Below are positions 1-37,160 of a stretch of 64,000 nt of DNA, piece after piece; within the stretch, counting starts at the first letter, position 1, and each line of letters opens with the position of its first letter. The notes below the pieces were generated by a model. It was not told the DNA's origin and did not search any database. It worked only from the letters and a program-made list of their open reading frames with translations. The stretch comes from an uncultured Planctomycetia bacterium (GTDB lineage Bacteria; Omnitrophota; Gorgyraeia; Duberdicusellales; 4484-171). The stretch covers positions 77,020 through 141,019 of the forward strand of contig CAZAYU010000002.1 in the NCBI GenBank assembly GCA_964489445.1, given 5' to 3'. The position numbers and the translations under genes were made by a program.

Positions 1-88
1 TAAAGATATAGAAAATGCTTTCACAGAGGATAATTCTTTAAAAAGAGTAAGTGTTATTCTCTCGACTCGGAAAAAACCAAGTAGTATT

Positions 89-3000
89 TTGTCACGGGTT
101 AACGGAAAAGAGGAAGAACATTTGCCTAGCTGGCAGGATAGGTTTTCTGCTCTCAAAGGGTTCTTGGAAAAAGAAGGTATCTCTCAGGATATTTGCATTG
201 CAGTTTCTTATGCTGTCTGTTCCAAGATTGTGGATTCTCGAAAATTAAAATATCGATTACGTTTTTTTCAAAAGTACGGATTCTTAACAGAAAAAGAATG
301 CCGTCTTTTGATTAAAAGAAAATACATTGATTGGGAAAGATTTTCTCAAAGGATAGCGGAAGAGTATAGAGTATTGATAAACTCTTCACAGAAGTTTACG
401 GAGAAACAAGTTAAACTTATTTTAAAAAGAGGGTTTTCTGAGCAAGCAGCATGTGATTTAAAAAATAAATATCGAAAGTATGGAATTACAAAGAGTGAGC
501 TTGTTCAGTCAATGTGTAATCAGGATCCGGAAAAATACTTAGGTAAATTAATCATGCCTCGCGCTAGAGCAGATGGGAATAGAATGATATTTCGAAGGCA
601 TCTGGAAGATGAAATAGGAGTATTTTTCCTTCCAGCGGAAAGAAACGAAATAATAGACGGATTATTAGAATTTATTACTGGGAGGAAATGGGAGCACAAT
701 GAAGTTTTCGTTCGTAAATTAAATAAATTAACCCAATGTAACACTATAACCTTAAAGCAGAAAAATATGCTACTGAATATTGGAAGATATGCTTCCGAAG
801 CGTTTACCAATCAATTTAAACCTAAAGATGTTGCTCAACGGATAAAACAAAATATGATTTTGTATTTGGATCCATCATTGCAGAATGGACTGGTTACTCC
901 CCGGCAAGCTTTATTTTTAGTAGTTAGGGGGTATTTATATCCGGAATTTAAAAGCATTATGAATGAATACTGCTTGACTAAAACTGAGTTGTTGGAGGTT
1001 ATTCATGGGTATAGCAATCCGGGAGAAATTTTGGAAAAACTAAGGCCACAAAGGATTAATTATTTGCATCGAAAAACAAAATTGCCTGAATATTTCATAA
1101 AAATAATATTGATTAAACGGGGCAGCAAGATTACAGATGGATATTTAGAGGATTTGCTTAAAGAAGCAAAATACCTAATTAAAACATACGCAATACCTGT
1201 ATACATTGCTTTGAATTGGTATATCCGAGGCAATAATGCACAAAGCTTTAAGCAAAGGGTAGTCGGTTTAAGCCGACAGGAAGGGCTTCCGATTAGGTTG
1301 ACTTATCACTTATTTTTTCAAAGGGAGCTAACACAGAAAGATATCAATCGAAATATTATTATGCTATCTGAATCCTGTGGGAGAATTCTTCAGGAGAAAA
1401 AGGTGGCATATCAAAAGATGCAGGAGTCGTTATCTGCTTTAGAAAAAGATATTTATCGGGATGTAAGTTTTGTTCAGGCCGTGATTATCCGAAAAAAAAT
1501 CGAACAATTAGTAAAAGCACGTCCGAATAATGAAATATTAAATGGCTTAAAAAAAGAATTTGGGGTTAAGTATCATATACTACAGGAATTAGTAGATTTA
1601 ATTTTTAATCAACTTAAAAATGATAATTTAAGTGAGGCGATTTATTCTGGGGCAAGAAATAAAGGAGTGTCTCTGGCGGTGTATAGAATAGTAGAAGCAA
1701 GAAAGGAAATAAAAAAAATTGCCAAGACTGCTAGCAAAGAAATAACTGATTTTCAAAATAATAATTTAATGTATTTATACCAAAAACGTAAAAAAGCCAG
1801 TGTGAGAGAAAATTCAGAATTGAAAAAATGTTTGTCTGAAAAGATTGTTCAAAGAATATCTGGGAAGCTTGGAGGAGTTTTAGAAGAAAGTGTAATTATA
1901 GAATTAGGAGAAAAGATTATTTCCGGATTTTTTAATACTAAAAATGGAAAAGTAAAAAATAAATTAGAGCGTTTTAGAGAAAATGGATCATTGACTTTGC
2001 AACAATGTGCGCTTGTTGAGTCACACAGGTGGCAGGTGTTTAGTCGGGAAAACTGGCTTGACCGATTATCGGATAATTTAGTATTTGATGTCTCTAGGCT
2101 TAAAAGAGAGTTTGATTTTTCTGATAGTTTGGTAATAAATATTATTCTTAAAGGATATTATTACTCTTGGATTTGCGAGTTATATAGGCAATACCCTCAT
2201 CTTAAAAAATCCTTTTTAGACAGAATGTTTCGTGCTGAATTTCCGGAAAAATATCTTTTATGTCATTGTGGGCCATTGGATAGAGAGGTTAAAGCTGCTC
2301 AAGTTTTTATGAAAGAGCTGACCAAAAGTACTGATTTTTCTCTACCGAAGCAGGTTGAGGAGCTGTTAAGTCAGGATTATACATATCGGCAGTTAGTAGT
2401 TTTGGTATTGAATGCCAGGGTTAACCATTCAGAGTCAAATATTAGTTTAGGTAAGCAAGCGGCTCGTTATTTTGTTCAAGCGCATCTTTCAATTGCTGAA
2501 GAAATTGCTAAGGAATATCGTTATCGGTATTGTAGCAGGCAATGTATTCAAGAGGGAACAACGGCTTTATACGAAGCCTTAAAAAGTTATACTCCGGATT
2601 ATCAAAGCGAAAACGGATTTCCGGAACATGCGCGTAAGTTTATAAAACAGCGATATGAACAAATATTAAAAATGACAAGGAAGGATTATCAAAACCAAAA
2701 TTACCATTCTGTGAGTATTGATGCGCCGGCATATGGTGATTCTAGCCGAATTACAAAGCAGGAGATATTGGGTGTTAATGACATAGCCTCTGGTTTTGGA
2801 AATAATCTTCATCAGCTTAATCCGGAAGATAACATTATTTTTTCTGAAAAAGCTCAAAATGGATCAATAAAGCAAAAAGAAGAAAGGGAAGACCTAAGGA
2901 AAAATATTTTTTCAGATGTTGCAAGAAAACTTTATCAGCAAAAAAATATTTCTTCTGCTTGGTTAGAAATTTTATTAAGTGAAATTAATCAATATTCCGG

Positions 3001-6000
3001 AGATTCGGAAGATCTTTCTCAGCAATTTAATGTCGACGTTGAGGAGGTCGAGAAATGCCTTAAAATTGGGTTAGCAAAAATAGGTGAGCATATTATTGCT
3101 CATCCAGAGTTGATTGCACATTTTTCTATTTCTGCTGTTTCAGAAGTTAAACAGAAAAAAGGAACTTTGCAGTATGAGGAAAAAAAGGGTTCTAGTTCAG
3201 CATTAAAGGTAGTTGAACATTTATGTTGCAATGAAGAATTTATTGAAATTACTAACTGTGCTTCTTATCGTCATTTACGTTCTCCGCCTAAAAAGATAGT
3301 TATCCCTGAATGCAGCTACAGTCTCGCCAGATTTTTTCGCTTGTCTTTTGGCAGGGCAAGCTCGCCAGTAAATCAAGACAAAAATATTGCTTTCAAATAT
3401 AATCAAAATAATCCGGAGTCTATCATCGCTGAAACTTTCCTTGCTCGAATGTACGGAAACATAAATCCTGATAGAAAGGCTAAGATACTCTGGCAGCTAT
3501 TATTAGGAGCGGGGATAATTCCTTTTTGGCAGACAGCAAAGATAATATCAAAAACTATTATTTTTATGGTTTGGGCTACTTTTTGTTTCAAGTGGAACCA
3601 AAAATACAGAGAGCAGTTTTTTAAGACAGTCAAGGAAGACCTTAGTTGCCGCTATAGTAAGACTGCGTATATCGGCAATCAGACGACCGCGTGTAGAGTA
3701 GATTTTAAAGAAAGAATACAGAATAGAAAAATTGTGGAAGAGTTTACTCAATGCATAAGAAAAATATTCTCCTCCGTTATATTTATCTGGTGTTTTACAA
3801 CATTTTCTTGTTTGATGAAATTTGTTGATACGCTTGATGGACGTGCTGTAATAGTGTATTGTTTTGGTCTTCCAGAAATGGTGTTGTTTTTTGTTATATT
3901 GCCTGCGGCTGCATATTTATTCCTGATTAATGTGATCTATAATATCGACGTAATAGTTAGAGATTTAGAAAAATCTTTAGCTATAGAAACATCTATTATT
4001 TCGAGAAAATCTTCTTCTAATTGCGATAACAGTTCTAGCTCGTCGATTGAACGTAGATATACATCAAGTTTAAGAGAAATTAGCCATATTGGTGAAATTA
4101 TCAGGGAGTTAATCCGAAAAGATCCCTTTGCGGCTTTTTCATTTAATAATGAAAAACTTTGGATGCAAATTGTTCCGGATAAGAGTAATTGTCTGCGGTA
4201 TGTAATTTATCCTGAGGTTGGAGAGGTGCGTAGGCTATTTTTTCTAAGGGCGTTAAACAAACCGGTCGGTGATCCCTTTGTCGCTCCTTCTGGATCGTTA
4301 GGCCAAATTATTTTTTTCCTGAATAATTCTATTGAAATAGAAAAATTAGCCAGTGGTATGTTTTTGGAGGTGCAATCAAACATATGGCTGCGGCGGATGA
4401 ATCCAGAAATGCGTAATCTCCTTTTGCGCTGGATTATTTCGGCAGTTCAGCATATTATTTCAGCCGCGCATAAAGAGGGAATTTACGATTTTTACGCTTC
4501 GACTCCAAAATTTATAAAGAGTATATATTTAAGAGACGGCATAAGACTGGACCAAGGAAATTTAAAGAAACACTATCAACGGCCGTTTAGGCGACAATGG
4601 CAGAAAAAGGATATAGAAGTTTTAGATAAATATGTTAACTATACAGATAGTAATATTGTTCCACTTTGGTACTACAACAGAGAAAGTCGTTTATTAAAAA
4701 GCAGTAGCTCAATAAGTATTATTTCTGGCAAAGAACCGGAACCAATATCGGCAGTAAAGATAAATACTAACCCATTGACATCTAGCCAACAGGTATACCT
4801 AGAGAATGCTGCTAAAGGAAGAAAAATTCCTAGTTATTACTTAAATGTTATTTTTGAAAAATTCCGCAAATTAGAATTGATTAGTTCAGAAAGAGAATCT
4901 TGGGATAGATGCAGGCCTATTGTTCGGCTAGAAGCATTAAGAGTAGCCATGGCGAACCATTGGATAAAGCCGGGTAATATTAGCTTTTTAGAAGAAGTTA
5001 TCCGAAACCCGTTATCTCCGAAACAGCAAGATATTTTAGAGTTAATTTTAGATTTAGAACTTGATGTTCGGAATTTTTCACGAACGTACCAGATATTAGC
5101 TGATAAATTTAAAATAACTGTAAATTCTGTGGCGAATAACCATGTCAGACAGATATACAAAAAATTAAAAGTTAATTCTGGTTTAATTAAATCTGGATGG
5201 GGCCTAGTTGAGGCAGCAAAAATAGCAGCAGAAAGTGGATATATAAAATATGATGTTTCTAAATATGAAAGATTTGTGCAGAAATATTCTAAAATAGAAT
5301 TAACTGTTGGAGAGAAAAAATGTTTGATAAAGCAGATTTTTGGTATCGATAGTGAATATGTAAGGTCGCGTGACGCAAAGTTGATGAATGCAATGAGTAG
5401 CTGTAACCGGAGAATACGCAACAAATTGGGCATTCGCAAGAAATGGAATCGAGGCGATAGCATGATGCCGGTAGCAGATTATGTTTTACGGCAAGATATG
5501 ATTTCTACTGAAGACATAGTTACAGTTGCCGTGAGCTTGCCGTACATTACCAAAATATTTAGTGTAGATTTCCTGAAAGTTTATTTTTCTAGAAAACATT
5601 CTGCCAGAGATATAAAGGAAGCTTTTAAAGTATTTTTACCCGGTAATGTCGAAAAAACGAAGAAAATTATTCTTTTTTATATTTGCAATGTAAAACAAAT
5701 TATATATCCACTAACGTCTGGATGTTTAGAAGCTTTAGAAGATGCCTTGAGAGTGAATTTACCGGCAACAGTAAAACAATTTGGGCCGACAGTGTTTTTT
5801 GGTTTATTCGGCGAGGGAGAAAAAGATCTCGGAGCATTGGTAAGAAAATTAATAAGTAAGCGCGTTCATGATTTTAATCCGGGAGATCTTTCTTGCAGGA
5901 AGGAAAAGCTTGCTAGAGTATCAATAAAAGAACCGGAAGAAGAACCAGAGGAAGAATTTAAAACCGCTAATTCCGCTAACGTTGAGGAAATCAAAATGTT

Positions 6001-9000: not shown

Positions 9001-12000
9001 AAAAAAATATGGCAAAATAATAAATAAAAAACGTTTTCAAATGATGATGTCTTCCTGGAAAAAGAATAGAAAAACTGCGGTAAGAGAAGTAACCAGAATT
9101 TGCTTTGGTGAAGAGAATATCAACGCGGATGATGAAATATTTTTTTGGGAAAAAGAAAATCGGATAAAAGTGACAAAAATATTGGATGCTGTAGTAAAGG
9201 ATATTATCGGAGAAGGGTTTCATGTGATACCCGAAATCAGGAGGAACAAATTTATTTTGGCTTGTGGCTTAAGAGAGTTATTGGTAAGCGCTAAAGCGGC
9301 TTCTTCCCGGGAACTATTAAAGGAAGCTGGATTGATTCCGGCTGGAAACTGTTTAGATGGCTTAGAAGTAAGTAGCTCTGCGTTGTTTAATTTTGGTTGG
9401 AGGTTGGCTTTACCGGTAAGTAGAGCGATTAATCATTATTCGCTTAAATGCTTTAGAGTAAAGCAGCCAAAAAGCAATTTAATAGTTATTGATGTGAAGA
9501 TAGGAAAGGAAAAAAAAGGATGCATAAAGTCATTAAGTAGCAAGCGTTTGATTTTGTCTGCCGGAGAAAGTTTGCCATTTAAGTCCTGTGAAATAATAGA
9601 TGTTAAAAGTATTGAATTTATCGAAAAAGATAGCCGGAAAAAATCCAGCTCTTCACTTAAAACAATAGGATTTGGTTCATCTGATTTATCGTTTGACAGG
9701 TGTCACAAAGAAGCACAAAGATTAATTAAGACTTTGCAATATAAAGGCATACCCTGGACAGATGCTTATATGCGGGTATTGCCGGAGGTAGAAAAGGTTA
9801 CGAAAAAATATCCGGATAAATGGTTTATATCAGCAATTAATTTGGGTATAGCAATTACAAAAGAAGGTCTTCTTCCTTGCCCAATATTATATTACGGTGT
9901 GGGGCTAGCAGTTATAAGCTCTAATGCAAGCTTTGACCAGTATAAACAAAATCTTAATTGTCTAAAATATTGGGCGGAAGAAATAAGCCGAATTGTTTGG
10001 AAAAATGTAAATGAGGAAGGTGAGAAATATAATTTTAGACAGATAAGCACAACAAAGAGTAAAAATATAATTTGGAGAAATACTGCTTATAGGAAAATAG
10101 ATGATTCGCTAAAAAGTATTGAAGTCAATGGAATAACCAGTTCAAGGCGTTTACGAACTGCGTTGGATGAGTCTTCTGGCTATTCAATAAATTGGCCTTC
10201 CAGTTGTCTAGTTACGTTTTGTAGTGATCAATCCGAGTATAAAAATTACATAATACGTTTTTTATCTAGATGTTTGGGTAATGGGCATTCGAAGAATGTA
10301 AATGTAAAGGAAAGATTGGAAGAGAATGTTTCAAGTTCATCGGTAGAGATAGTATTTAATTCACCAGATTGGGAGGCCATTAGGAATACAGAGCTTTTTT
10401 CTGTAGTTGTGCCTATTTCCGGTCGTACCGATGATTACAATATATTTTATCAAAAGACATATGATTGGCTATTATATTTTTTCCGATTATCTTTGTTTAA
10501 AGAGCAAATCGCAGATTTATTGTCATATACTTTGGCGGAGATATTTCACGATGCAGTAAGAAAAAATTTAGATTTGCGTGCAGCGTATTCACTTTCCGGA
10601 TTTTTTGTTTTGGATAATAGTACAGAATGCGCACCGGTATATTTAAATGCGGAATTTATTCAAAAAGCAAATAGTCAGACTGATTATCAATGGTTGCTTT
10701 CAACTCAGAAAGAATATGCAAAACAAGGTCCGGATTATTTATTAAGTGAAAAGATTCAAAAAAACAGACAAGATATTGATGATGATTTTAGGTATGGATT
10801 AGCGCAATTCGCTAGATTAATTTATGAGTTGCCTTGTTGTCTAAAGTATGCGGTAAGCTCTATAGCGCCTTTTAAAACTACAGTAGAATTTACTGTCAAA
10901 ATTATGAATTTACCTGATTTTGTAGAAAAAGATGTTCCAATTTGTACATTGAAAAAAGAAAAATTGCAAAAAGCAAAAGTGTTACTTACGAGCGAATTAT
11001 CAAAATGGAAGAATCAGTTAGACCTAACTTTAGCGTTTAGCGGGCAAGAAAATCGTGAGCATATTTTTTTCCGTAAAGGTTTAATGCAGTTATCAATGAA
11101 AAATCTTATTAGTTTACGGACATTTGAAGAAATTAGAGAGGTATTATTAAGTGCGCATAAGATTATTTTTAAAATACATGAAAATATCATAACTTTACCA
11201 TCTTTATCAGGAAAAGAAAAACTTAAAATTTCTTCAGGACGATTAGCAAATATAAACTTTAACTGTGCATTTTTAAAGCAATGGCTTGGAGAACTTTTTA
11301 AGGAAATAGAGGTTATTGAAAATATTGGTCATCATTCAAACGGAAAAGCTAAAGTAAGAACACTTTTGCCTAAAAAAGTCAGTTCTTCAATTATGAAAGC
11401 AGAGAAAGAAGCTATTACCTCACTGGCGGTTATTTCTTGTTTGACTAGAGGAGAAGAAGAATTATCTTTGTTGGATACCTCCTTTTATTTCCCGCAGTAC
11501 CTGCGAAAAAAAACAAGCGAATTTGTCTATGGTTCAAATAATCCGGTTTCTTCTTCGGCGGTTAAAAGTAATGAATATTTATTTGGCCTCAAAATCATCA
11601 GCATGAAAATTATTTACTCAGAGAACCCGGAAAGTGTTTTAGAACAAATTCTACAGCTTAGCATGCGTTTTGCGGTTGAAGACGGAGAAATGCTGATGAC
11701 AAAAGAGTATATAAAAGATGAGATCGAAAATGATTCCAAAGATTTCAATTTAGCCTTTGTTGATGCCGCCGGAGTAATTATTGGATATCTTTTGACTCAA
11801 GAATCTCCGCGTCATCCCAATGCCTTGTGGTTTACTTTTATGGGAGTAGAGAAGGAACGCAGGAATAAAGGTTTTGCAAAGATGATGATGAAAATCGCCG
11901 CCTTGAAGGCTGTAGAATATAATATAGAAAGGATAAAATTAGGAGTAAGAAAAGAGAATAAAATAGCTATCGCTATGTATGAAAGATGCGGGTTTCAAAG

Positions 12001-15000
12001 AGATCCAATAACTTATTTTAAAAGCGAAAAAGAGGAAATTAATTTCCAAGATTATTCGGAAACGATGAGTAAAAAATATGGTTTTAAAATGAGCTCTCAA
12101 GATAAAATCACAATTGACGGAGTTGGCTATGAATTTGTGGATTTCTCTGCTGTGCCGTCTGAGATAGTAAAAAGTATAATAAACACTTCGTCGTTAGAAT
12201 TAAACGAGGAATTTAAGGAGTCGCGTATTATTGCCTTTGGTTTAAATTATAACCCTAGATTAACCAGCTTCCTGCGGGTTATAAGCACATTAATTGAAGT
12301 GTATGGGCGCTTTAAGGAAAAAGACATCAGTTTACGAATCGTTCGCCTCTGGGATGAACAGGAGTTGAATTTTGAGAAACCGATAGAGTGCTATACTTTT
12401 CAAATTTCTCATAGTGAGCAAATTAAATTGGTTATCGAGAGCAAAACAAGATCTAAGGAAGCAGTTGTTGAGGCAATGAATATCGTTGCCTGTCTTCTGA
12501 CGCAACCGGAATTTGAAAACGGATTAAACTGTCGTAATGCTCCTGAAAAACAAAAATTCGATGAGCTCTTCCATAAATTTAGAATAATTTTGTCTTTGGA
12601 AGGATCGTCGCCTGATTCTCCTCTTTCTGTTGCTACCGCTGCCTCACCGAAGAGCACTAGCTCGCCTGTTAATAAAAATTGGCGCCAGAAACTTATAAAT
12701 GCCGCAGATGATTTAAGAGTATTAAAATTGGAAGGTATTATTTTAAGCCGGCTTAGTGATTTCGAAAGAACAATACTGCAAAAGCGTACGGAATTTCCTC
12801 CGGTAGATAGAAAAAATGTGGCTGCTGAACTAGGGTATCCAGTATGGAAGGTAGCCAATATTGAGCGAATGCTTTCGGTAAAGGTTCCGGCACTGTTAAA
12901 ATTATGGAAACATGCCGATGCAGTCTTAATAGCATTATTCAACGGCTGTAGGGTAAATATTAATTATATCGGTATAAAAAATATAGATTTGCTCAGCCGG
13001 ATGATTGAACCTGCTGTTCGTTTCAGTAAGAAAGAGACCGAATTAATGAAATTTTTGTGTCAGATTATCGAATACAGAGAACAAAAAAGCAGCGAAATTA
13101 ATAGTCTTATAGTAATCAAAAGAGAAATGTCTTTAGGAATTTTTCAAGTTAAACCATCTACGTGGAGAATATTTGTTCAGAACTTCCGTGGTACAGATGA
13201 TCCTCTTTCTTCATCATCTCTGGTTTTTAGTTCCAGTTTGTCGACGGAAATAGAAGAAGTAATTGCACAGACATTAACGTCTGTCGCCTCGCCGGTGAGT
13301 ATAAGTGAAAAAAGAATCAGGAAAGTAAGAATATTTTTAAAAGAGCACCTTAATCCTAACATCATCGGTATTATAGTACACGGCTCTACAGCTAGAGGTG
13401 ATGCCTTAGAAGAAAGCGATTTTGATTTTGGTTTAATTAAAATAAACGGCGATTTTACTTATGAATTGACTCAGGCGGACCTAGATTTTCACAGAGGGCT
13501 TTTAAGATGTTTGGCACCTGTGAAGGTAGATAACCAGCTTAAACCTCTAATTTGGAAAGGAGAGGAGGCTTTTAATAAATTTGTAAGTTTATATTTTTTG
13601 GAACGCAAATACGCTACTGCCATTGAAGATGTACCGTGGGTTAATAAGCTGGAAGCTTTTATTAAAAGTTACCGCATAATTGCGAGAAACAAAGAGCTGG
13701 AAAATATAATTTATCAAAGAATAGAGGATGCTAGAAAATCGATTATGAAATCTGTACGAAATAAAGAAAATAAAACAGCTTTTACCAGCTCGTCAATAGA
13801 TGGTAGCAAGAGGCAAAGGATTAATAATCTGGCTGAATATAAGAGGCTAATGAAATTGAATGCACAGTTGTTAGTACGAAGTAACACTGTTTCTTCGAGC
13901 TTTCCGGCGGAAAAAGATGGAGAGGTAGAACGCTCTTTGATAAGTGTGGATTCTTTTATGGATTTTACAGGGCCGGTTTATTATCCTGCCAGCGAATTGG
14001 ATTTAGAAAGTATGGTTTGGTTGGCGAGATTATTTCCAAAACTTAAGATGTTGATGTATGTCGATGTTTTGGATCCGGATGAAATGAATGCAGCAACTGT
14101 TTTTAAACCAGAGGAAGATGACGGTGAAGGTGTTAGTGGAGCATTTCGATATTATGGGCCCGACGATATGTCATTATTGCAGCGTCAGATGCAAAATAAA
14201 CTATCTCAATTTCAATATCATAATGAGGCTATTATTGATTACAAAAATACTGGGGTAGATATTATTTCGGTTGAAGACATGGAATTGCTACTTAAGGTAT
14301 CTTTTAAAAGAAACATCAAAAAAGCCCCGTGGCTAAATAGCAGAGTTATAGAAATTAATTTTTTAGTTTGTGATATTTTTGATTACAAAAAAATATTTAA
14401 CGTAATTTATGTTAACTATCCCGGATATTGTGGTGGCTTAGCAAGAGTAGAAGAATTTTGGGTATTAATGCGTAAGCAGATTTCTGAGCAGGGATGTTTG
14501 TTAGAGACAAATATACATCGTAAAACACCTAAAACTAGAGTTTTTAAGAAGAAACTTTTTTCTAAGACGGACCAGATAAAATTAACCCAATATCCGCGCA
14601 TAGATGTTTTACGACCGATAAAAATTATCTCTGCCTCGCCGCTAAACTACTCGAACTTAGCATTGGGTTCAGTAAGAGAATCCAGGGTTAGCTCGACAAT
14701 AAGTCATTGTTCCAAAGTTGTTTCGATAAGAAAATTAACGCTTGCTGATTTTGATGTGTCTAATTACTCATCTTCTTCTGTATCCGCAAGTTCTAATTTA
14801 GTGACAAGTAGTATTCTCGGTAATTTATACAATATGAGAAACATGTTCATTGCGTATCAGGATATTCTTAGTAGTTCCGGGAAGATGATTCAAGCGTGGG
14901 TTAATGAGTCAATAGCTGCTATGTATAAGCCGGATATTAGGTCAAAAGAGATCAGAAGAGCAAAAAAGATTACAGAGCTAATGCCTGATCCTCAAAGAAT

Positions 15001-15991
15001 AAGTCTTACGGACAATGGAAGATATAACTGGTTTGGTTGGTTTAATCTTGAGAATATTGATGTTTGGCGGATTTTAGGGTTTGGATGTATTGATCCTTGT
15101 CAATTTTGTCTACAGGAAAATGTAAAATCAAAAGCAGTTAATTATCCATTACCGGTGATTATCAAGTTGGTAATTGAAGAGAACCCAGCAGCGCAATTTA
15201 ATTTTTGGCATAATAATGAACCGTTTCAGTGGTATGATCCGTTTTTTAAGAGTTCCTTAGACGGACTAATTGAATTTACTGTACGACGATATCCGCATAT
15301 GTTTTTTTATGTGACAACAAGAGGCTTTGAATTGAGTGATTGTCGTTCAGAAAAGACTGCCAGAAATATTTGCAATTTGGTAAATGAATATCCGCAACTA
15401 AAGAATCGTATTTTTAATGTTTCTTTTCATCTTTGCTTAGGAACTCTTAAGTATGACATTATCCGCGCGATAGCATATCGGGGTAAACAGCCAGAAATAT
15501 TTAATCAAGTCCGAAAAAATTATATTGAAAGGTATAGAAATATCTTTTCAGCTTTAAACAGTGCAATTCAAAGAATTTATATTTATCGAGACGGTCCAAA
15601 TAATTTTTTAGGAGAAATTAATTGGGATATTTTTGCTAAAGCAACTCAAGAGATAGGGAGGCACGAATGGCAGGTAGAGTCACATACGATAGGCAATCAT
15701 GATTCTTATAATAAAAGCAGGGATTTTATCAACAGGCTTAAGCAGGCATTTAATGGCAAATATGTTAGGGCTTCTTATATGAGAATACAGAACCGGGATT
15801 TTATTCCAGAGGATAACGTTCCTCAGATAGAGACATTCAAGAGTGGAAAAGTTATTATTCGCAGTAATGGGGAGGAAATTGCAAGATCGACATTAGTTGA
15901 CTTAGATTATCATCCAGAAGCTGCGCTGAGAATTAATGGGTGCGGATTAGGTGTTGAGAGCAATTATGGTGCACCAATAAATGTTCAGTAA
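89..15991 (+). CDS. Giant multidomain protein of at least 5300 aa. The 5' end is uncertain. The first in-frame start-like codon is TTG at 89; a TTG at 122 has a GAGGA Shine-Dalgarno 7 nt upstream. The same frame is open, with no stop, back to window position 2, so the gene may begin upstream of the window.
   Basis: Single stop-free frame of 15.9 kb in an AT-rich sequence, which is impossible by chance. Codon and composition usage match the neighbouring genes. Multiple enzyme and HTH motifs are recognisable (listed as separate features). No N-terminal signal peptide. Confidence 0.85.
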   Translation: MSRVNGKEEEHLPSWQDRFSALKGFLEKEGISQDICIAVSYAVCSKIVDSRKLKYRLRFFQKYGFLTEKECRLLIKRKYIDWERFSQRIAEEYRVLINSSQKFTEKQVKLILKRGFSEQAACDLKNKYRKYGITKSELVQSMCNQDPEKYLGKLIMPRARADGNRMIFRRHLEDEIGVFFLPAERNEIIDGLLEFITGRKWEHNEVFVRKLNKLTQCNTITLKQKNMLLNIGRYASEAFTNQFKPKDVAQRIKQNMILYLDPSLQNGLVTPRQALFLVVRGYLYPEFKSIMNEYCLTKTELLEVIHGYSNPGEILEKLRPQRINYLHRKTKLPEYFIKIILIKRGSKITDGYLEDLLKEAKYLIKTYAIPVYIALNWYIRGNNAQSFKQRVVGLSRQEGLPIRLTYHLFFQRELTQKDINRNIIMLSESCGRILQEKKVAYQKMQESLSALEKDIYRDVSFVQAVIIRKKIEQLVKARPNNEILNGLKKEFGVKYHILQELVDLIFNQLKNDNLSEAIYSGARNKGVSLAVYRIVEARKEIKKIAKTASKEITDFQNNNLMYLYQKRKKASVRENSELKKCLSEKIVQRISGKLGGVLEESVIIELGEKIISGFFNTKNGKVKNKLERFRENGSLTLQQCALVESHRWQVFSRENWLDRLSDNLVFDVSRLKREFDFSDSLVINIILKGYYYSWICELYRQYPHLKKSFLDRMFRAEFPEKYLLCHCGPLDREVKAAQVFMKELTKSTDFSLPKQVEELLSQDYTYRQLVVLVLNARVNHSESNISLGKQAARYFVQAHLSIAEEIAKEYRYRYCSRQCIQEGTTALYEALKSYTPDYQSENGFPEHARKFIKQRYEQILKMTRKDYQNQNYHSVSIDAPAYGDSSRITKQEILGVNDIASGFGNNLHQLNPEDNIIFSEKAQNGSIKQKEEREDLRKNIFSDVARKLYQQKNISSAWLEILLSEINQYSGDSEDLSQQFNVDVEEVEKCLKIGLAKIGEHIIAHPELIAHFSISAVSEVKQKKGTLQYEEKKGSSSALKVVEHLCCNEEFIEITNCASYRHLRSPPKKIVIPECSYSLARFFRLSFGRASSPVNQDKNIAFKYNQNNPESIIAETFLARMYGNINPDRKAKILWQLLLGAGIIPFWQTAKIISKTIIFMVWATFCFKWNQKYREQFFKTVKEDLSCRYSKTAYIGNQTTACRVDFKERIQNRKIVEEFTQCIRKIFSSVIFIWCFTTFSCLMKFVDTLDGRAVIVYCFGLPEMVLFFVILPAAAYLFLINVIYNIDVIVRDLEKSLAIETSIISRKSSSNCDNSSSSSIERRYTSSLREISHIGEIIRELIRKDPFAAFSFNNEKLWMQIVPDKSNCLRYVIYPEVGEVRRLFFLRALNKPVGDPFVAPSGSLGQIIFFLNNSIEIEKLASGMFLEVQSNIWLRRMNPEMRNLLLRWIISAVQHIISAAHKEGIYDFYASTPKFIKSIYLRDGIRLDQGNLKKHYQRPFRRQWQKKDIEVLDKYVNYTDSNIVPLWYYNRESRLLKSSSSISIISGKEPEPISAVKINTNPLTSSQQVYLENAAKGRKIPSYYLNVIFEKFRKLELISSERESWDRCRPIVRLEALRVAMANHWIKPGNISFLEEVIRNPLSPKQQDILELILDLELDVRNFSRTYQILADKFKITVNSVANNHVRQIYKKLKVNSGLIKSGWGLVEAAKIAAESGYIKYDVSKYERFVQKYSKIELTVGEKKCLIKQIFGIDSEYVRSRDAKLMNAMSSCNRRIRNKLGIRKKWNRGDSMMPVADYVLRQDMISTEDIVTVAVSLPYITKIFSVDFLKVYFSRKHSARDIKEAFKVFLPGNVEKTKKIILFYICNVKQIIYPLTSGCLEALEDALRVNLPATVKQFGPTVFFGLFGEGEKDLGALVRKLISKRVHDFNPGDLSCRKEKLARVSIKEPEEEPEEEFKTANSANVEEIKMLTKFFSPEEFDPNLLYKVGEKILGNGFLLPVLEEKIDFIMGLLLDRNRRHDYVYAFLILKKAMEDHPQRTAELFIPHLFSKQLPINNDGLPFIEKLYKERNGWFDYFIHKLWPYLSQPLKNDISQLQNHKSLSSTGVDYWGMSSSSINYKNYNDYVCTNKETIVGSSAINNRPVKSFTELNKEEVFKLVPKGSRRHTRNVIRLVGQIGNVVGLAQKELCCLKYLACAHDIGKGNKNISHLFLSSEIWDKNAKERRLARKHSRYTVVILEKHFGIQLPHGERQIIFWHNRLKAINWKWVSSQNKLFWLILIIADIIDGSIDTSRKHKVGKNLKFDPAMTLKRIRIVVGDLLSADDNVKKIYNVVERLCFNEEFIETANRASYRHLRSPPEEIAIPKCGDSVSKSVYSGWKNGKAVSSSAVFRGVNYSASKIDIKEISIPNIRNHHYQIILKKTNNGNWPGICKVWVNSTSVGDLEYWVRETLVVLRRFYIKRKYRGEGIGQTVMHFIADLVWEKNIRFNTKTLLGISAVTDAVLVRTFCNAIENIVYGSLDDPKSTDKEDLLSKVNSGGGLNFRGDPIGLSALYPKEKEWPIFFESASSVVNADYCSSSLPVSISDELITEIKVLRRRDEPGYSNFMQLLDKANSYDIKAAIDRIEPYLRSYFILLLSKKDPEKLILKSISPMDILPLEKIADILSIDSSAFMIAQSADEYKNSISLYIPGETKLVKIFIRSLSMLPITISRFADNREPLPPYINEFLGRKGVKSCIIHDGYRTRVQLFYGLTWRFSIDYFELDSSLWGKGIGDILYVNLERYAKECGFTVISVEGGCPVEPKSEVFFARQGFSESFAIRDEGGRESNPQMTFIVFKKIISSAFADNSSSPMDKEDYKDFGQKQGSKEQAANEKEEIENALRKTRVRNEAAKIFGISPAQFYRKIKKHGIDLNTFSKKKGRLSDITKEKMEELIIRHKGSVAAIAYELKVSGTAVSLLLKKYGQADWAKEQRKKYGKIINKKRFQMMMSSWKKNRKTAVREVTRICFGEENINADDEIFFWEKENRIKVTKILDAVVKDIIGEGFHVIPEIRRNKFILACGLRELLVSAKAASSRELLKEAGLIPAGNCLDGLEVSSSALFNFGWRLALPVSRAINHYSLKCFRVKQPKSNLIVIDVKIGKEKKGCIKSLSSKRLILSAGESLPFKSCEIIDVKSIEFIEKDSRKKSSSSLKTIGFGSSDLSFDRCHKEAQRLIKTLQYKGIPWTDAYMRVLPEVEKVTKKYPDKWFISAINLGIAITKEGLLPCPILYYGVGLAVISSNASFDQYKQNLNCLKYWAEEISRIVWKNVNEEGEKYNFRQISTTKSKNIIWRNTAYRKIDDSLKSIEVNGITSSRRLRTALDESSGYSINWPSSCLVTFCSDQSEYKNYIIRFLSRCLGNGHSKNVNVKERLEENVSSSSVEIVFNSPDWEAIRNTELFSVVVPISGRTDDYNIFYQKTYDWLLYFFRLSLFKEQIADLLSYTLAEIFHDAVRKNLDLRAAYSLSGFFVLDNSTECAPVYLNAEFIQKANSQTDYQWLLSTQKEYAKQGPDYLLSEKIQKNRQDIDDDFRYGLAQFARLIYELPCCLKYAVSSIAPFKTTVEFTVKIMNLPDFVEKDVPICTLKKEKLQKAKVLLTSELSKWKNQLDLTLAFSGQENREHIFFRKGLMQLSMKNLISLRTFEEIREVLLSAHKIIFKIHENIITLPSLSGKEKLKISSGRLANINFNCAFLKQWLGELFKEIEVIENIGHHSNGKAKVRTLLPKKVSSSIMKAEKEAITSLAVISCLTRGEEELSLLDTSFYFPQYLRKKTSEFVYGSNNPVSSSAVKSNEYLFGLKIISMKIIYSENPESVLEQILQLSMRFAVEDGEMLMTKEYIKDEIENDSKDFNLAFVDAAGVIIGYLLTQESPRHPNALWFTFMGVEKERRNKGFAKMMMKIAALKAVEYNIERIKLGVRKENKIAIAMYERCGFQRDPITYFKSEKEEINFQDYSETMSKKYGFKMSSQDKITIDGVGYEFVDFSAVPSEIVKSIINTSSLELNEEFKESRIIAFGLNYNPRLTSFLRVISTLIEVYGRFKEKDISLRIVRLWDEQELNFEKPIECYTFQISHSEQIKLVIESKTRSKEAVVEAMNIVACLLTQPEFENGLNCRNAPEKQKFDELFHKFRIILSLEGSSPDSPLSVATAASPKSTSSPVNKNWRQKLINAADDLRVLKLEGIILSRLSDFERTILQKRTEFPPVDRKNVAAELGYPVWKVANIERMLSVKVPALLKLWKHADAVLIALFNGCRVNINYIGIKNIDLLSRMIEPAVRFSKKETELMKFLCQIIEYREQKSSEINSLIVIKREMSLGIFQVKPSTWRIFVQNFRGTDDPLSSSSLVFSSSLSTEIEEVIAQTLTSVASPVSISEKRIRKVRIFLKEHLNPNIIGIIVHGSTARGDALEESDFDFGLIKINGDFTYELTQADLDFHRGLLRCLAPVKVDNQLKPLIWKGEEAFNKFVSLYFLERKYATAIEDVPWVNKLEAFIKSYRIIARNKELENIIYQRIEDARKSIMKSVRNKENKTAFTSSSIDGSKRQRINNLAEYKRLMKLNAQLLVRSNTVSSSFPAEKDGEVERSLISVDSFMDFTGPVYYPASELDLESMVWLARLFPKLKMLMYVDVLDPDEMNAATVFKPEEDDGEGVSGAFRYYGPDDMSLLQRQMQNKLSQFQYHNEAIIDYKNTGVDIISVEDMELLLKVSFKRNIKKAPWLNSRVIEINFLVCDIFDYKKIFNVIYVNYPGYCGGLARVEEFWVLMRKQISEQGCLLETNIHRKTPKTRVFKKKLFSKTDQIKLTQYPRIDVLRPIKIISASPLNYSNLALGSVRESRVSSTISHCSKVVSIRKLTLADFDVSNYSSSSVSASSNLVTSSILGNLYNMRNMFIAYQDILSSSGKMIQAWVNESIAAMYKPDIRSKEIRRAKKITELMPDPQRISLTDNGRYNWFGWFNLENIDVWRILGFGCIDPCQFCLQENVKSKAVNYPLPVIIKLVIEENPAAQFNFWHNNEPFQWYDPFFKSSLDGLIEFTVRRYPHMFFYVTTRGFELSDCRSEKTARNICNLVNEYPQLKNRIFNVSFHLCLGTLKYDIIRAIAYRGKQPEIFNQVRKNYIERYRNIFSALNSAIQRIYIYRDGPNNFLGEINWDIFAKATQEIGRHEWQVESHTIGNHDSYNKSRDFINRLKQAFNGKYVRASYMRIQNRDFIPEDNVPQIETFKSGKVIIRSNGEEIARSTLVDLDYHPEAALRINGCGLGVESNYGAPINVQ
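2530..2700 (+). other. Sigma-70 region-2-like segment inside the giant ORF (CIQEGTTALYEALKSYTPDYQSENGFPEHARKFIKQRYEQIL).
   Basis: Resembles the sigma-70 r2 consensus (LIQEGNxGLMKAVEKFDPxxGxxFSTYAxxWIRQAI) in spacing and residue classes. Motif-level only. Confidence 0.35.
3208..3313 (+). repeat. Copy A of a 35-aa intragenic motif (VVEHLCCNEEFIEITNCASYRHLRSPPKKIVIPEC).
   Basis: About 80% nucleotide identity over roughly 105 nt to copy B at 7082..7186. The same reading frame is conserved. Confidence 0.85.
3480..3960 (+). other. Cluster of 3-4 hydrophobic, putative transmembrane, segments inside the giant ORF, about aa 1131-1291.
   Basis: Stretches IIFMVWATFCFKW, IFSSVIFIWCFTTFSCLM and AVIVYCFGLPEMVLFFVILPAAAYLFLINVIY are each 13-30 consecutive hydrophobic residues. 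Confidence 0.5.
5012..5180 (+). other. LuxR/GerE-type helix-turn-helix module inside the giant ORF (LSPKQQDILELILDLELDVRNFSRTYQILADKFKITVNSVANNHVRQIYKKLKV).
   Basis: Matches the LuxR-type pattern LSxRExxVLxLxxxGxSxxEIAxxLxISxxTVxxHxxxIxxKL. Confidence 0.45.
6590..6900 (+). other. HD-domain phosphohydrolase-like module inside the giant ORF. The HD dyad is at nt 6680..6685 (H2198-D2199).
   Basis: RRHTRNVIRLVGQIG...LKYLACAHDIGK has the HD-superfamily signature of a first His followed by the xxHDIGK motif. His and Asp residues further downstream fit the metal-ligand positions. Confidence 0.5.
7082..7186 (+). repeat. Copy B of the 35-aa intragenic motif (VVERLCFNEEFIETANRASYRHLRSPPEEIAIPKC).
   Basis: Paired with copy A at 3208..3313. 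The two copies are 3874 nt apart. Confidence 0.85.
7447..7640 (+). other. GNAT acetyltransferase-like core number 1 inside the giant ORF (RRFYIKRKYRGEGIGQTVMHF...).
   Basis: Matches the acetyl-CoA-binding motif A pattern R-x-x-G-x-G/A (YRGEGIGQTVM). Confidence 0.45.
8368..8500 (+). other. GNAT acetyltransferase-like core number 2 inside the giant ORF (LWGKGIGDILYVNLERYAKECGFTVISVE).
   Basis: WGKGIGDIL followed by an aromatic/acidic and GF segment is typical of GNAT motifs A and B. Confidence 0.4.
8707..8975 (+). other. Two tandem Fis/NtrC-type HTH motifs inside the giant ORF (NALRKTRVRNEAAKIFGISPAQFYRKIKKHGIDL and EELIIRHKGSVAAIAYELKVSGTAVSLLLKKYG).
   Basis: Both fit the C-terminal HTH of sigma-54 activators and Fis (AL..T.GN...AA..LGISR.TLYRKLKKYGI). 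Confidence 0.5.
11790..12010 (+). other. GNAT acetyltransferase-like core number 3 inside the giant ORF (VEKERRNKGFAKMMMKIAALKAVEYNIERIKLGVRKENKIAIAMYERCGFQ).
   Basis: RRNKGFAKMMM (motif A) followed by AIAMYERCGF (motif B, YxxxGF) is classic GNAT spacing. Confidence 0.5.
12737..12900 (+). other. Sigma-70 region-4-like HTH inside the giant ORF (LSDFERTILQKRTEFPPVDRKNVAAELGYPVWKVANIERMLSVKV).
   Basis: Resembles the r4 pattern LxxRERxVLxLRF...TLxEVGxxxGVTRERIRQIExKAL. Confidence 0.3.
13361..13445 (+). other. Minimal Pol-beta-type nucleotidyltransferase motif inside the giant ORF (IIGIIVHGSTARGDALEESDFDFGLI).
   Basis: hG[GS]x9-13Dh[DE]h signature: HGSTARGDALEESDFDF. Confidence 0.5.
15078..15988 (+). 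other. C-terminal radical-SAM-like segment of the giant ORF. Cys codons lie at nt 15086, 15098 and 15107 (C5000-x3-C5004-x2-C5007).
   Basis: GFGCIDPCQFC is a CxxxCxxC cluster. It is followed by WHNNEPFQW (GGEP-like) and YVTTRGF (TNG-like) at the expected spacing for a radical SAM core. Confidence 0.4.
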
Positions 15992-16069: not shown

Positions 16070-16381
16070 ATGAATATTCAAGGATTGAAGAATCGCAGGT
16101 TATTTGAAAGAACTCCTTGCGCTCTTCTGGGAGACTACAACAATAGCAATCATAAGGCAGTAGGAACCAAGTGCTATGACATATCTACAACTGGTGCCGG
16201 ATTATTTCTGTTTGAACGTCTAGCTAAGGGATTTGAAATGCAGCTTAACCTGATTACTAAAAAAATAGCGCCTTTATCTTTAGCCGGAAAAATTTGCTGG
16301 TGCCGAAAGGAAGCCACTGGCTATCGGGCTGGAATCGCTTTTAATAAAAGTTTAAATCTTCCCTTAGAGGCACTTGCCTAA
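16070..16381 (+). CDS. PilZ-domain protein, a putative c-di-GMP receptor.
   Basis: RRLFER (RxxxR) and DISTTGAGL (DxSxxG) motifs. A strong AAGGAGG Shine-Dalgarno lies 7 nt upstream. The start is 79 nt downstream of the giant ORF stop. Confidence 0.6.
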   Translation: MNIQGLKNRRLFERTPCALLGDYNNSNHKAVGTKCYDISTTGAGLFLFERLAKGFEMQLNLITKKIAPLSLAGKICWCRKEATGYRAGIAFNKSLNLPLEALA

Positions 16382-23891: not shown

Positions 23892-24842
23892 ATGAAAAAA
23901 GGTGTTTTAAAAATCAGCTGTTTAAGTATATCTCTTTTATTGTGTTTTGTATCTATTCCGATATTTGGTGCAGGATCAGGTGTTCCGGAAGAAAAAATTA
24001 CAATTATTACTTATTATCCTGCACCTTTTGGTGTATACAATGAATTACGTTCTAGGAAAATGGCAATCGGCGATGAATACGTTGATAATGCCGGAGACTA
24101 TTGCTGGCAAGGAGAAGGATGCTCAAACGAAATACCTGAAAATATTCGCTTGCAGGTAAACACTCCTGGTTCCTATTTGTCAATCGGAGAAATGACAATT
24201 GCAGGAGGTAGTGCCAGAGGTCTACATATTGGCACTACACATGACCTTAGCGGTAAAGGCGGAGGCATCTGGTATACAACAAACACTTCAGGAGGTAATT
24301 TGTCTGTTGCCAGCACTGATTATATGAGTATCGATACCTCTGAAGACCCTACCACCGGTAGACAATACCCAATCAGAATGCAAACCTGGAGCGACTCCGG
24401 AAGCTGGAAATTGGGTAATGTAGGTATTGGAACGGTAACTCCCCGAGCAGTTTTAGATGTTGCATCCACTACCAGCGGTTTTGTTCCTCCGCGGATGTCT
24501 GCTTTCCAGCGTGATGTTATTTCTAGTCCTGTAGAGGGCTCAATGGTTTATGTTAATGACCCAACAGTTAAGGAGTACAACTACTATGATGGAGTCAGTT
24601 GGCAGGCGTTAGGGGGAGGCGGAGGTTGTTATGTAGACTATAGTCGACCTGGGGGGCAACCGGTAGGAGCAAGCTGTTCAGTAAGTGGATTTACTATCAG
24701 GGCTTCGCTTGGTTCCTGGGGGTTTTGTAGCAGTTATATTTCTGGAGAGAGTGCAGCAGCTTATTTCCTTCCACCAGGTGGTTCATGTTATTCTGGTACA
24801 ACTTCTAAGCCTTATAGTTACGCTTATCTTTGTTGTGAATAG
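23892..24842 (+). CDS. Secreted Gly/Ser/Thr-rich protein with a Cys-rich C-terminal module (8 Cys in the last 90 aa, ending CCE).
   Basis: N-terminal signal peptide MKKGVLKISCLSISLLLCFVSIPIFGAGSG. The internal motif pair GNVGIGTVTPRAVLDV...PRMSAFQRDVISSPVEGSMVYVND is reminiscent of widespread tail-fibre/lectin-like exported proteins. Confidence 0.6.
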   Translation: MKKGVLKISCLSISLLLCFVSIPIFGAGSGVPEEKITIITYYPAPFGVYNELRSRKMAIGDEYVDNAGDYCWQGEGCSNEIPENIRLQVNTPGSYLSIGEMTIAGGSARGLHIGTTHDLSGKGGGIWYTTNTSGGNLSVASTDYMSIDTSEDPTTGRQYPIRMQTWSDSGSWKLGNVGIGTVTPRAVLDVASTTSGFVPPRMSAFQRDVISSPVEGSMVYVNDPTVKEYNYYDGVSWQALGGGGGCYVDYSRPGGQPVGASCSVSGFTIRASLGSWGFCSSYISGESAAAYFLPPGGSCYSGTTSKPYSYAYLCCE

Positions 24843-24909
24843 TTATTTATTTTGTTTCTTGGGAACATACTTAGTGTTTTTTTGCTTAATAGACTTATTT
24901 AAAAGAGTA

Positions 24910-30819: not shown

Positions 30820-30915
30820 AAAAGAATATTCTAGATAAAAGGTGTTTTAGCCGTAATGTGTGGAAAAATAAGCTATCTGTGATAAATTTATCCAAAAAAA
30901 TAATAGGGGAAAATA

Positions 30916-31974: not shown

Positions 31975-32153
31975 ACTGTTAGAAGATTACTGTCACAGTT
32001 TGATTAATAATTTAGCATTGTATATTTTGTTTTTAGGGAAGATGTTGTAAAATTTTCTAGTTATAAGTTCACAATCCTGAGAGGGATTAATTTGATTGTG
32101 TAATTTTTTCGTGTTTTGACTTAAAAAATTATAATTTTATTGAGGAGGGAAAA

Positions 32154-36267: not shown

Positions 36268-36301
36268 GATAGTTATAAAAAAAGTATTTTAAGCAAAAGC
36301 A

Positions 36302-37054: not shown

Positions 37055-37160
37055 GTATAATTTTTTGTCTTAGATGAGGAAGGCTATCTTTAGACAATGT
37101 TTAAAGTGTAAATATTCAATTAAGTTATTATTTTTCTTAATTTAGTTAAAAGGGGGATAA

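Follow-up and report, generated by a model that had tools for sequence, protein, structure and literature searches.

Short serine marks delimit the cassettes of a giant Omnitrophota gene and coincide with the breakpoints of their exchange

Giant genes of the phylum Omnitrophota are among the longest open reading frames (ORFs) known, and they are a recognised trait of that phylum (PMC10066038; 10.1101/2023.11.21.568195). The length from which they are counted differs between studies: an ORF of more than 20 kb (Seymour 2023, PMC10066038), a protein of at least 10,000 amino acids (aa) (Nielsen & Lui 2026, 10.64898/2026.06.07.730766) or one of more than 30,000 aa (West-Roberts 2023). Published catalogues of proteins of at least 10 kaa comprise 916 and 5,761 entries, the 916 being those of Nielsen & Lui (10.64898/2026.06.07.730766); in the same work 80% of sequence clusters were singletons, 46% were 'TM-only', with transmembrane (TM) segments and read as inner-membrane-anchored with cytoplasmic domains, and a multi-enzyme class was described in which a regulatory module (methyltransferase, HATPase, GNAT, HAD, HD) occurs together with radical S-adenosylmethionine (SAM) domains. 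C39 and S8 domains are recurrent in Omnitrophota giants and cleavage has already been hypothesised; the field has stated that it cannot tell whether giants act whole or cut, and that the missing cleavage points block their structural dissection (10.1101/2023.11.21.568195; 10.64898/2026.06.07.730766). Here we analysed such a gene, P0001, which enters at the 5' end of a stretch of 64,000 nucleotides (nt) of contig CAZAYU010000002.1 (assembly GCA_964489445.1, positions 77,020 to 141,019), called the window throughout. P0001 is not a single fold but a chain of about 20 gene-sized cassettes with a short serine mark between them, and such marks are module boundaries and the exact breakpoints of cassette exchange between related giants.

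P0001 is a member of the published multi-enzyme, membrane-anchored giants of Omnitrophota. Like them it is a very long, poorly conserved and mostly 'dark' ORF of the same phylum, it carries GNAT, HD, methyltransferase and radical SAM domains with none dominating, and it combines a unique sequence with a recurring type of architecture. Members of the class are often TM-anchored and lack a signal peptide; in P0001 hydropathy points to one candidate anchor module, and the N-terminus, MKLNNSIFNKNCKIKPKIK, contains no hydrophobic signal-peptide core by inspection. With 6616 aa P0001 stays just below all three length thresholds, but together with a second ORF located upstream the locus reaches at least 19,279 codons and passes the 10-kaa catalogue limit. 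An earlier reading of the window from its sequence (the original prediction) had seen here the strongest candidate for an undescribed system, unlike known giant bacterial genes; on that view P0001 would be a soluble cytoplasmic giant of an entirely new kind. This proposal agrees with the lack of a full-length homologue in 5.8e9 proteins, in GTDB species representatives (185,579 reference genomes) and in JGI metagenomes, with the lack of an adhesin or RTX repeat architecture and with the absence of the domains that characterise the 'Archaeovorin' and 'Dockerin' types (SecA_DEAD, C39, dockerin, glycosidase); nevertheless the host belongs to Omnitrophota, a giant ORF is syntenic in its relatives, modules are common to many other giants, a hydrophobic anchor module is present, and the domain repertoire and the sequence non-conservation are exactly those published for the multi-enzyme class. 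We therefore regard the proposal as largely refuted, and an entirely undescribed kind of giant as very unlikely. What the original prediction had rightly anticipated is that annotation would yield a hypothetical orphan, as the sole full-length match among 5.8 billion proteins is P0001 itself.

The other described systems differ more. Most full-length giants (West-Roberts) have a divergent SecA_DEAD and/or an N-terminal C39 or S8 domain, whereas at E <= 0.01 Pfam gives no match to any of the three, either in P0001 or in the 3308 C-terminal aa of the upstream giant. 'Archaeovorin' (Velamenicoccus archaeovorus) and the 'Dockerin-type' proteins are giant ORFs of the same phylum for which cleavage into several products has been hypothesised (10.1101/2023.11.21.568195); they carry glycosyltransferase, glycoside hydrolase, peptidase, NUDIX and SecA-like, or dockerin and TSP3, domains and are read as largely extracellular, while in P0001 and the same part of the upstream giant no dockerin, TSP3, glycosidase, glycosyltransferase or NUDIX domain was found and the content of P0001 is regulatory and of cytoplasmic type. 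Omnitrophota giants are also often flanked by type II secretion system, type IV/pilus and glycoside hydrolase genes; the flanks of P0001 consist of pilZ-opp, housekeeping genes and the upstream giant. Megasynthases (non-ribosomal peptide synthetases, NRPS, and polyketide synthases, PKS) and eukaryotic multi-enzyme fusions resemble P0001 in being long, non-repetitive, multi-domain and linker-separated. However the modules of P0001 are functionally unrelated, follow no assembly-line order and are each a complete independent protein, and no NRPS/PKS domain (adenylation, condensation, ketosynthase, acyltransferase, carrier) gave a match. The punctuation marks and cassette breakpoints are a feature of P0001 for which we found no mention in three Omnitrophota papers (PMC10066038, 10.1101/2023.11.21.568195, 10.64898/2026.06.07.730766) or in the wider literature searched, so that the internal punctuation and cassette grammar of giants seem to be previously undescribed.

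Each mark is a run of three, four or five serines, and the residue behind it is hydrophobic or a proline (L/I/A/V/P/F). P0001 contains 21 SSS runs against 3.4 expected (maximum 12 in 2000 shuffles), and the 3308-aa C-terminal part of the upstream giant contains 10 against 1.3 expected (shuffle maximum 6), while in the window's 45 ordinary ORFs, 14,947 aa in total, 4 were counted against 4.7 expected. At 33 of the 36 sites L, I, P, A, V or F comes next after the serines, and lysine is enriched at positions -5 to -8 before the runs. Serine codon usage is the same inside and outside the runs (p=0.43); since the serine codons of the marks are those used elsewhere, and vary between copies, the mark has been selected as a peptide and not as a nucleotide signal. 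A signal at the DNA or RNA level (a DNA repeat, off-frame stops, a slippery site) was considered and rejected, because the codons vary, with the p-value given above, and no tandem repeats exist. A proteome-wide serine habit or a recoding was likewise rejected, given the unremarkable count in ordinary window ORFs and their normal stops.

To locate the marks with respect to modules, the last 1197 residues of P0001 were used as query in a HMMER search of 1.84 billion representatives, and this query was matched module by module, never as a whole. Homologues of the nucleotidyltransferase module were found in six other long proteins and in one stand-alone protein of 176 aa, whose ends project to P0001 aa 5706 and 5877, inside the module at 5700-5882; those of the methyltransferase-like module (module X) in about 11 long proteins; those of the C-terminal radical SAM module in about 17 long proteins as well as in stand-alone ones of 380-446 aa. 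Both kinds of stand-alone protein align end to end with the modules, and the N-termini of ten stand-alone radical SAM homologues project to aa 6204-6216, the SSSS mark being at 6210-6213. Over ten giants, a copy of the protein's own mark lies inside only one of 35 Pfam- or fold-defined domains, the exception being an atypical SSS-G within a radical SAM fold. In the JGI protein P0004 the radical SAM module spans aa 958-1350, with one mark ending at 951 and the next beginning at 1351, and in P0017 marks at 149-151 and 512 enclose a PfkB domain (176-494). Structure prediction with AlphaFold2 (AF2) gave a similar picture: in the model of the radical SAM module residues 1-34 are predicted to be disordered, with SSSS at 30-33 and order directly after, and in a multi-module model module X is confident and five of five marks fall in segments with a predicted local distance difference test (pLDDT) below 50, the model as a whole having a pLDDT of 59.

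The exchange of cassettes at the marks could be followed in P0002, a 1864-aa fragment from an Omnitrophota metagenome-assembled genome (MAG) that is an orthologue of the upstream giant. The two proteins are 74% identical up to EKPYK-SSSS, then unrelated, and 72% identical again right after the next mark. At the serine run the nucleotide identity changes from 82% to 40%, and the four serine codons of that run differ synonymously between the two genomes. In the blocks common to both proteins the ratio of non-synonymous to synonymous substitution rates (dN/dS) is 0.18 and 0.16, indicating purifying selection on the conserved blocks. The replaced stretch of P0002 holds a nucleotidyltransferase cassette (42% identity to P0001 5707-5875) and a GNAT cassette (27% to P0001 3921-4152), both bounded by SSSP or SSA marks; the finding of such P0001-like cassettes in P0002 means that cassettes move between giants. 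Module order is not conserved between giants, and whole-cassette replacement explains their orphan appearance. From these data it might be argued that the marks are functionless junction scars of recombination or cassette capture: they are the exact replacement breakpoints between orthologues, a 52-aa remnant of an HD cassette lies between two of them, and positional orthologues located beside oppB genes 70-78% identical are unalignable, which implies a very fast turnover. But a junction signal in the DNA would be expected to be conserved in its nucleotides, and here the peptide is kept while its codons differ between copies and between orthologues, which amounts to purifying selection on the peptide; no DNA-level repeats were found, and we consider scars an unlikely explanation.

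Other giants carry other marks. In an unbiased k-mer scan many related long proteins were found to repeat a short peptide of their own, with median gaps of about 190-440 aa. This peptide is SSSP or SSPV (SSSP[IV]) in P0004, P0002 and L006, with 4-7 copies of SSSP each against 0.02-0.06 expected; (A)SSPA in L011 (4 against 0.01); RAEVR in P0049 (15 exact copies; for RAEV p=1e-27); R[AS]ELR in P0035 (12 copies); RSE[VMA]R in P0057, P0043 and P0056 (7-14 copies); RTSP, also as (D)RTSP, in P0021 (6 against 0.02); AAMVG in P0048 (for AMVG, 4 against 0.01); (S)LDNGG in L012 (5 against about 0, p=1e-15); and KDGG in L007 (4 against 0.06). Codons differ between the copies of a mark in every lineage for which DNA was at hand. 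In a calibrated test the best 4-mer was unmatched in 200 shuffles for 15 of 30 giants, and three pseudo-giants, obtained by concatenating ordinary proteins of this genome, had no such 4-mer enrichment. The marks thus give candidate module boundaries readable from sequence and make the processing question testable.

We propose that the marks are recognition sites for the proteolytic release of modules and that the giant is a cellular polyprotein, a reading to which we would give a little less than an even chance. In this scheme one translation product, a 'protein operon', would be tethered at the inner membrane through the hydrophobic module, a cognate endopeptidase would recognise the marks, the regulators and small enzymes would be freed from the chain as separate proteins, and functions would be gained or lost through insertion or replacement of cassettes between marks. 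Cleavage is favoured because the marks are short, strict and giant-specific, as in viral polyproteins and beyond what a flexible linker needs, and because the modules equal complete independent proteins with free order. It is also favoured by the content of other punctuated giants. Deep inside P0004 (JGI, at least 4224 aa), at aa 3652-3866, lies a complete sigma-70 factor with its regions 2, 3 and 4, which, embedded as it is, should need release to act; the same protein has HD, methyltransferase, radical SAM, M28 peptidase and HATPase modules. P0021 has a trypsin-like peptidase module at aa 150-295 (Pfam Trypsin_2, E=2.5e-11), between its marks at 104 and 354. Finally, the marks ending in GG recall C39 substrates, and C39 and S8 are reported as recurrent in Omnitrophota giants. 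Double glycine is the hallmark of C39 peptidase substrates.

The closest parallels for such a scheme are partial. Viral polyproteins (picornavirus, potyvirus, coronavirus pp1ab) share with P0001 a single ORF for many otherwise independent proteins, a short lineage-specific peptide at each junction, unstructured linkers and some small inter-site peptides; they differ from P0001 in that here the host is cellular, no cis protease was found, cleavage is inferred and cassette turnover is far faster. As for C39 double-glycine processing (bacteriocin/PCAT systems), two syntenic relatives use LDNGG and KDGG, both ending in GG, but canonical sites are N-terminal leaders and not internal repeats, and P0001 uses SSS, with no C39 found in the available sequence.

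The main alternative is that the chain stays uncleaved, as beads on a string: a membrane-tethered protein co-localising enzymes and regulators, where the marks would be specific linkers, either docking or modification sites (serine phosphorylation, glycosylation) or a linker type propagated in a lineage. Several observations weigh against cleavage or fit an uncleaved chain. The marks lie in disordered inter-domain segments, as linkers would. Neither protease domains nor protease signatures (GDSG, TAAHC etc.) were found in P0001 or in the 3308 aa at the C-terminal end of the upstream giant, and the other window genes encode no protease beyond Clp- and RadA-type domains, a negative that also speaks for the uncleaved chain. 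The single hydrophobic module fits the published reading of TM-only, inner-membrane-anchored enzymes, and published topology work favours membrane-anchored whole proteins (10.64898/2026.06.07.730766). About half of the sampled giants have no enriched peptide; among them is L015 (JGI Ga0315289_10000815), whose locus at 2-11515 holds a giant with an open 5' end and a length of at least 3838 codons, in which the same radical SAM cassette is placed between hydrophobic segments; this suggests that TM helices may act as separators in some giants. Moreover the S-then-Pro marks of relatives are poor for many endopeptidases if cut between S and P, it is not obvious what the pieces of 30-90 aa that neighbouring marks enclose would do once released, and the multi-module AF2 model was built on a shallow alignment. 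On the other hand flexible linkers do not need a strict sequence of 4-6 residues kept through synonymous change, nor need they differ as SSSP, RAEVR and LDNGG do between giants; a membrane-tethered sigma factor, as in P0004, or HTH regulators would be hard to use without release; and module order is free. We consider the uncleaved chain possible, at clearly less than an even chance.

Extending proteolytic release beyond P0001, Omnitrophota giant ORFs in general could be cellular polyproteins, each translated in one go as a chain of tens to hundreds of independent proteins, cut by a cognate peptidase at protein-specific marks and evolving as swapped cassette arrays; we put this forward more tentatively than the claim for P0001. 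In that case the serine punctuation may serve as a guide to the cut sites of giants, and genes would here be organised and regulated with no promoter, start codon or stop codon separating them. Even if uncut, the marks remain of practical use for dividing thousands of kilo-residue proteins that otherwise defy annotation into their parts.

The giant frame is native to an Omnitrophota bacterium and is coding sequence under selection. In frame +2 the window has no stop over positions 2-15988, that is 5329 codons, followed by a stop codon at 15989-15991; the other two frames of the same DNA have 0.099 stops per codon, at which density the chance of 5329 open codons is about 1e-240. The ENA contig ERZ27315617:k141_159262 is 100% identical to the window across an overlap of 23,962 nt, and the gene called on it is 6616 aa long (19.85 kb) with its ATG located 3861 nt upstream of window position 2, the window carrying the 3' 80% of P0001. 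GC content is even along the gene (0.33-0.37), its relative synonymous codon usage correlates at r = 0.96 with that of 16 housekeeping genes from the window, where a frame-shifted control gives 0.69, and GC at third codon positions is 0.29 against 0.28 in host genes. No tandem DNA repeats were found in the giant frame, the internal protein repeats of P0001 amount to just two pieces of about 41 aa, and it has no RTX or adhesin Pfam matches. The original prediction of a single giant frame, open at the 5' end, continuing upstream of the window and non-repetitive, without adhesin or RTX repeats, has therefore been borne out, while the TTG codons at 89 and 122 that it offered as candidate starts are both internal to P0001. 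A Shine-Dalgarno-like sequence precedes merely 6 of 26 genes here and gives no verdict on the P0001 ATG. Extension of the contig upstream, also recommended there, succeeded for the start of P0001 on the ENA contig but not for the next giant ORF, which runs off that contig. The original prediction missed the serine punctuation, the cassette structure, the in-frame upstream giant and the hydrophobic module.

One could still suspect an artefact, either a chimeric assembly or a decaying pseudogene open by accident, as the data are metagenomic throughout and the upstream boundary, with its one in-frame TAA, is seen on a single contig. This is hardly credible when two records are base-identical over 24 kb, composition is uniform with host-like codon usage in this frame alone, catalytic motifs are intact, the sister ORF is under a dN/dS of 0.16-0.18, five other genomes also have a giant at this locus and so long an open frame has the chance given above.

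Concerning domain content, Pfam gave for P0001 a weak HD, three GNATs (best E=4e-13), a Fis-type HTH_8 and NTP_transf_2; fold searches added a radical SAM and a class-I SAM-dependent methyltransferase, and NCBIfam a RimI-like GNAT and a sigma-70-like stretch at E 0.003-0.01, far below the cut-off. A PDB sequence search matched GNATs and a nucleotidyltransferase alone. The cassettes thus comprise radical SAM, a methyltransferase fold, nucleotidyltransferase, three to four GNATs, HD, HTH, a weak sigma-70-like stretch and one hydrophobic module (Table 1). No Pfam match was obtained in the first 2000 residues of the window ORF or in the N-terminal 1400 aa outside the window, and HATPase_c has no Pfam match in P0001. 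The cytoplasmic enzyme and DNA-binding domains foreseen from motifs are confirmed by the HD, GNAT, HTH_8 and nucleotidyltransferase profiles and by the radical SAM and methyltransferase folds. A fused anti-phage or toxin-antitoxin island was considered and found no support, since PADLOC returned one weak nucleotidyltransferase match and NCBIfam MntA was far below the cut-off.

Most modules of P0001 measure 180-400 aa, with a few spacers of 30-90 aa and one stretch of about 2 kaa almost unmarked. A 41-aa cysteine-containing element, VVE[HR]LC.NEEFIE..N.ASYRHLRSPP...IP.C, occurs twice, in the tail of the HD module (window 7082-7204) and as a lone copy in 3200-3355; the latter, standing between two marks, is probably the remnant of a truncated HD cassette. 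The hydrophobic module is probably membrane-spanning, judging from Kyte-Doolittle hydropathy alone, with its hydrophobic segments at aa 2449-2606. The GNAT module at 11558-12658 ends in the degenerate marks GSSP / TSSPV.

Table 1. Modules and marks of P0001 in the window, with the adjoining genes (positions refer to the window unless L001 is named)
Feature	Position	P0001 residues	Strand	Remarks
Upstream giant ORF, retrieved part	L001 1-9928			window position 1 = L001 13861
P0001, 3' part	2-15991		+	5329 codons + stop, of 6616 codons in all; host-like codon usage
Sparsely marked stretch	2-3190	1288-2350	+	strict module aa 413-2350; no Pfam; relaxed SSAI at aa 845
Weak sigma-70-like stretch	2453-3082	2105-2314	+	E 0.003-0.01
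Mark SSS then A	3191-3199	2351-2353	+	
Mini-module, 52 aa	3200-3355		+	aa 2357-2397 66% identical to C-terminal tail of HD module, aa 3648-3688
Mark variant ASSP then V	3356-3367	2406-2409	+	
Hydrophobic module	3368-4009	2410-2623	+	sole one in P0001; about 4 candidate TM segments
Double mark SSS-NCDN-SSSSS then I	4010-4045	2624-2635	+	
Module, 218 aa	4046-4699	2636-2853	+	no assigned family
Mark SSSS then I	4700-4711	2854-2857	+	
Module, 571 aa	4712-6424	2858-3428	+	no profile match
Mark SSSS then I	6425-6436	3429-3432	+	
HD module	6437-7240	3433-3700	+	weak Pfam HD, aa 3481-3561
Mark SSS then A	7241-7249	3701-3703	+	
GNAT-like module	7250-7813	3704-3891	+	weak Acetyltransf_7/_CG/_10
Mark SSS then L	7814-7822	3892-3894	+	
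GNAT module with N-terminal extension	7823-8626	3895-4162	+	Acetyltransf_1 E=2e-7; 27% identity to P0002 module
Mark SSS then P	8627-8635	4163-4165	+	homologous P0002 module ends DNSSSSP
Fis-type HTH_8 module	8636-9370	4166-4410	+	E=9e-9
Mark SSS then A	9371-9379	4411-4413	+	
Short module, 88 aa	9380-9643	4414-4501	+	no assigned family
Mark SSSS then L	9644-9655	4502-4505	+	
Module, 225 aa	9656-10330	4506-4730	+	no assigned family
Mark SSSS then V	10331-10342	4731-4734	+	
Module, 346 aa	10343-11380	4735-5080	+	no assigned family
Mark SSS then I	11381-11389	5081-5083	+	
Spacer module, 53 aa	11390-11548	5084-5136	+	
Mark SSS then A	11549-11557	5137-5139	+	
GNAT module plus C-terminal part	11558-12658	5140-5506	+	Acetyltransf_1 E=4e-13, aa 5169-5285; RimI-like (NCBIfam); C-terminal part with no assigned family
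Module, 179 aa	12671-13207	5511-5689	+	no assigned family
Double mark SSSS-LVF-SSS then L	13208-13237	5690-5699	+	pLDDT < 50
Nucleotidyltransferase module	13238-13786	5700-5882	+	NTP_transf_2 E=1e-6
Mark SSS then I	13787-13795	5883-5885	+	pLDDT < 50
Spacer, 32 aa	13796-13891	5886-5917	+	lone helix predicted
Mark SSS then F	13892-13900	5918-5920	+	pLDDT < 50
Module X	13901-14629	5921-6163	+	class-I SAM-dependent methyltransferase fold; homologues inside about 11 long proteins
Mark variant SASP then L	14630-14641	6164-6167	+	confident module X fold stops here
Spacer, 41 aa	14645-14767	6169-6209	+	predicted disordered
Mark SSSS then V	14768-14779	6210-6213	+	ordered fold of the last module begins directly after
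C-terminal radical SAM module	14780-15988		+	CX3CX2C cluster motif; partial TIM-barrel fold
Small PilZ-domain protein	16070-16381			directly downstream of giant

The C-terminal module belongs to a divergent radical SAM family that is missed by Pfam Radical_SAM at E 0.01. Its motifs (alignment A2) are NW(F/I)NWFDL, G-C-x3-C-x2-C and DPFF; the family exists both as stand-alone proteins (380-446 aa) and within many giants, and in giants other than P0001 it ends in a conserved S(T/S)LDELDP(V/I) tail. A metagenome scan with the reduced alignment A7 found one locus.

The host, judged from the similarity of its genes, is an Omnitrophota bacterium. OppB, encoded by the second gene downstream after pilZ, is 70-78% identical to that of Candidatus Omnitrophota MAGs, including Ca. 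Susulua stagnicola, and the annotation Omnitrophota is also found on P0002 and on the module relatives P0005 and P0017. For five relatives (L005, L006, L007, L011 and L012) the full 10 kb upstream were available, and in each of them an uninterrupted frame of at least 2847-3166 codons spans this flank, from which we conclude that a giant at this locus is conserved in the clade. BLAST aligned these five giants neither with P0001 or the upstream giant nor with one another. The comparison with related MAGs, which the original prediction had recommended in order to find orthologues with the same domain order, gave a giant ORF at the same locus but no sequence detectably similar to P0001. Since the flanking OppB is 70-78% identical and the giants are unalignable, the content turnover at this fixed locus is extreme. 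Neighbouring genomes with this OppB identity carry different marks, so that a mark seems to be inherited along with its giant gene and to be independent of the lineage of the host.

Some of these contigs are binned elsewhere: L007 (JAIWAR010000005.1) as 'Methanosarcinales archaeon', and L004, L005, L006 and L008 as 'uncultured Planctomycetia'. The oppB genes of L004-L008 are Omnitrophota-like (76-77% identity), and L005-L007, for which the full flank is available, also carry the giant ORF; the non-Omnitrophota labels are probably due to mis-binning or mislabelling. Cultured Omnitrophota attach to methanogens, which makes the case of the archaeal bin notable.

Upstream of P0001, in the same frame and with its end 72 nt away, lies a second ORF, which has at least 12,639 codons and runs off the contig. 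Between the two giants only one TAA (L001 9926-9928) and 24 sense codons are found, on a single contig, so that the combined locus contains one stop. That these 24 codons are free of a further stop has a chance of about 0.08, and the prior for the same frame is 1/3. This arrangement is suggestive, though not a proof, of a recent split of one ORF or of (programmed) read-through.

The downstream flank of the giant is ordinary chromosome, with the order pilZ, oppBCDF, metH, lysS, lolCDE, ilvE, McsA-like, mcsB, followed by a ClpB/ClpC-type AAA+ ATPase, radA, ispDF, cysS, metG, lptFG and a histidine kinase. The pilZ gene has a strong Shine-Dalgarno sequence, rare in the window, and relatives show a gap of similar size between the giant ORF and oppB. 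At window 30346-39315 a McsA-like UVR-motif protein, the McsB arginine kinase and the ClpB/ClpC-type AAA+ ATPase are encoded, with RadA after mlaEF-like genes. The order McsA-like/McsB/Clp/RadA resembles that of the Firmicutes clpC operon; here the set sits in a diderm Omnitrophota genome, where Lol, Lpt and Mla systems are present. At window 23892-25701 two ORFs of 316 and 338 aa, without NCBIfam match, overlap by about 158 nt, probably because one start call is wrong or because of a frameshift. The sole minus-strand block of the window, at 52744-55622 (lptF, lptG and a ComF-like phosphoribosyltransferase), coincides with a dip in GC (0.31-0.32) and in GC skew.

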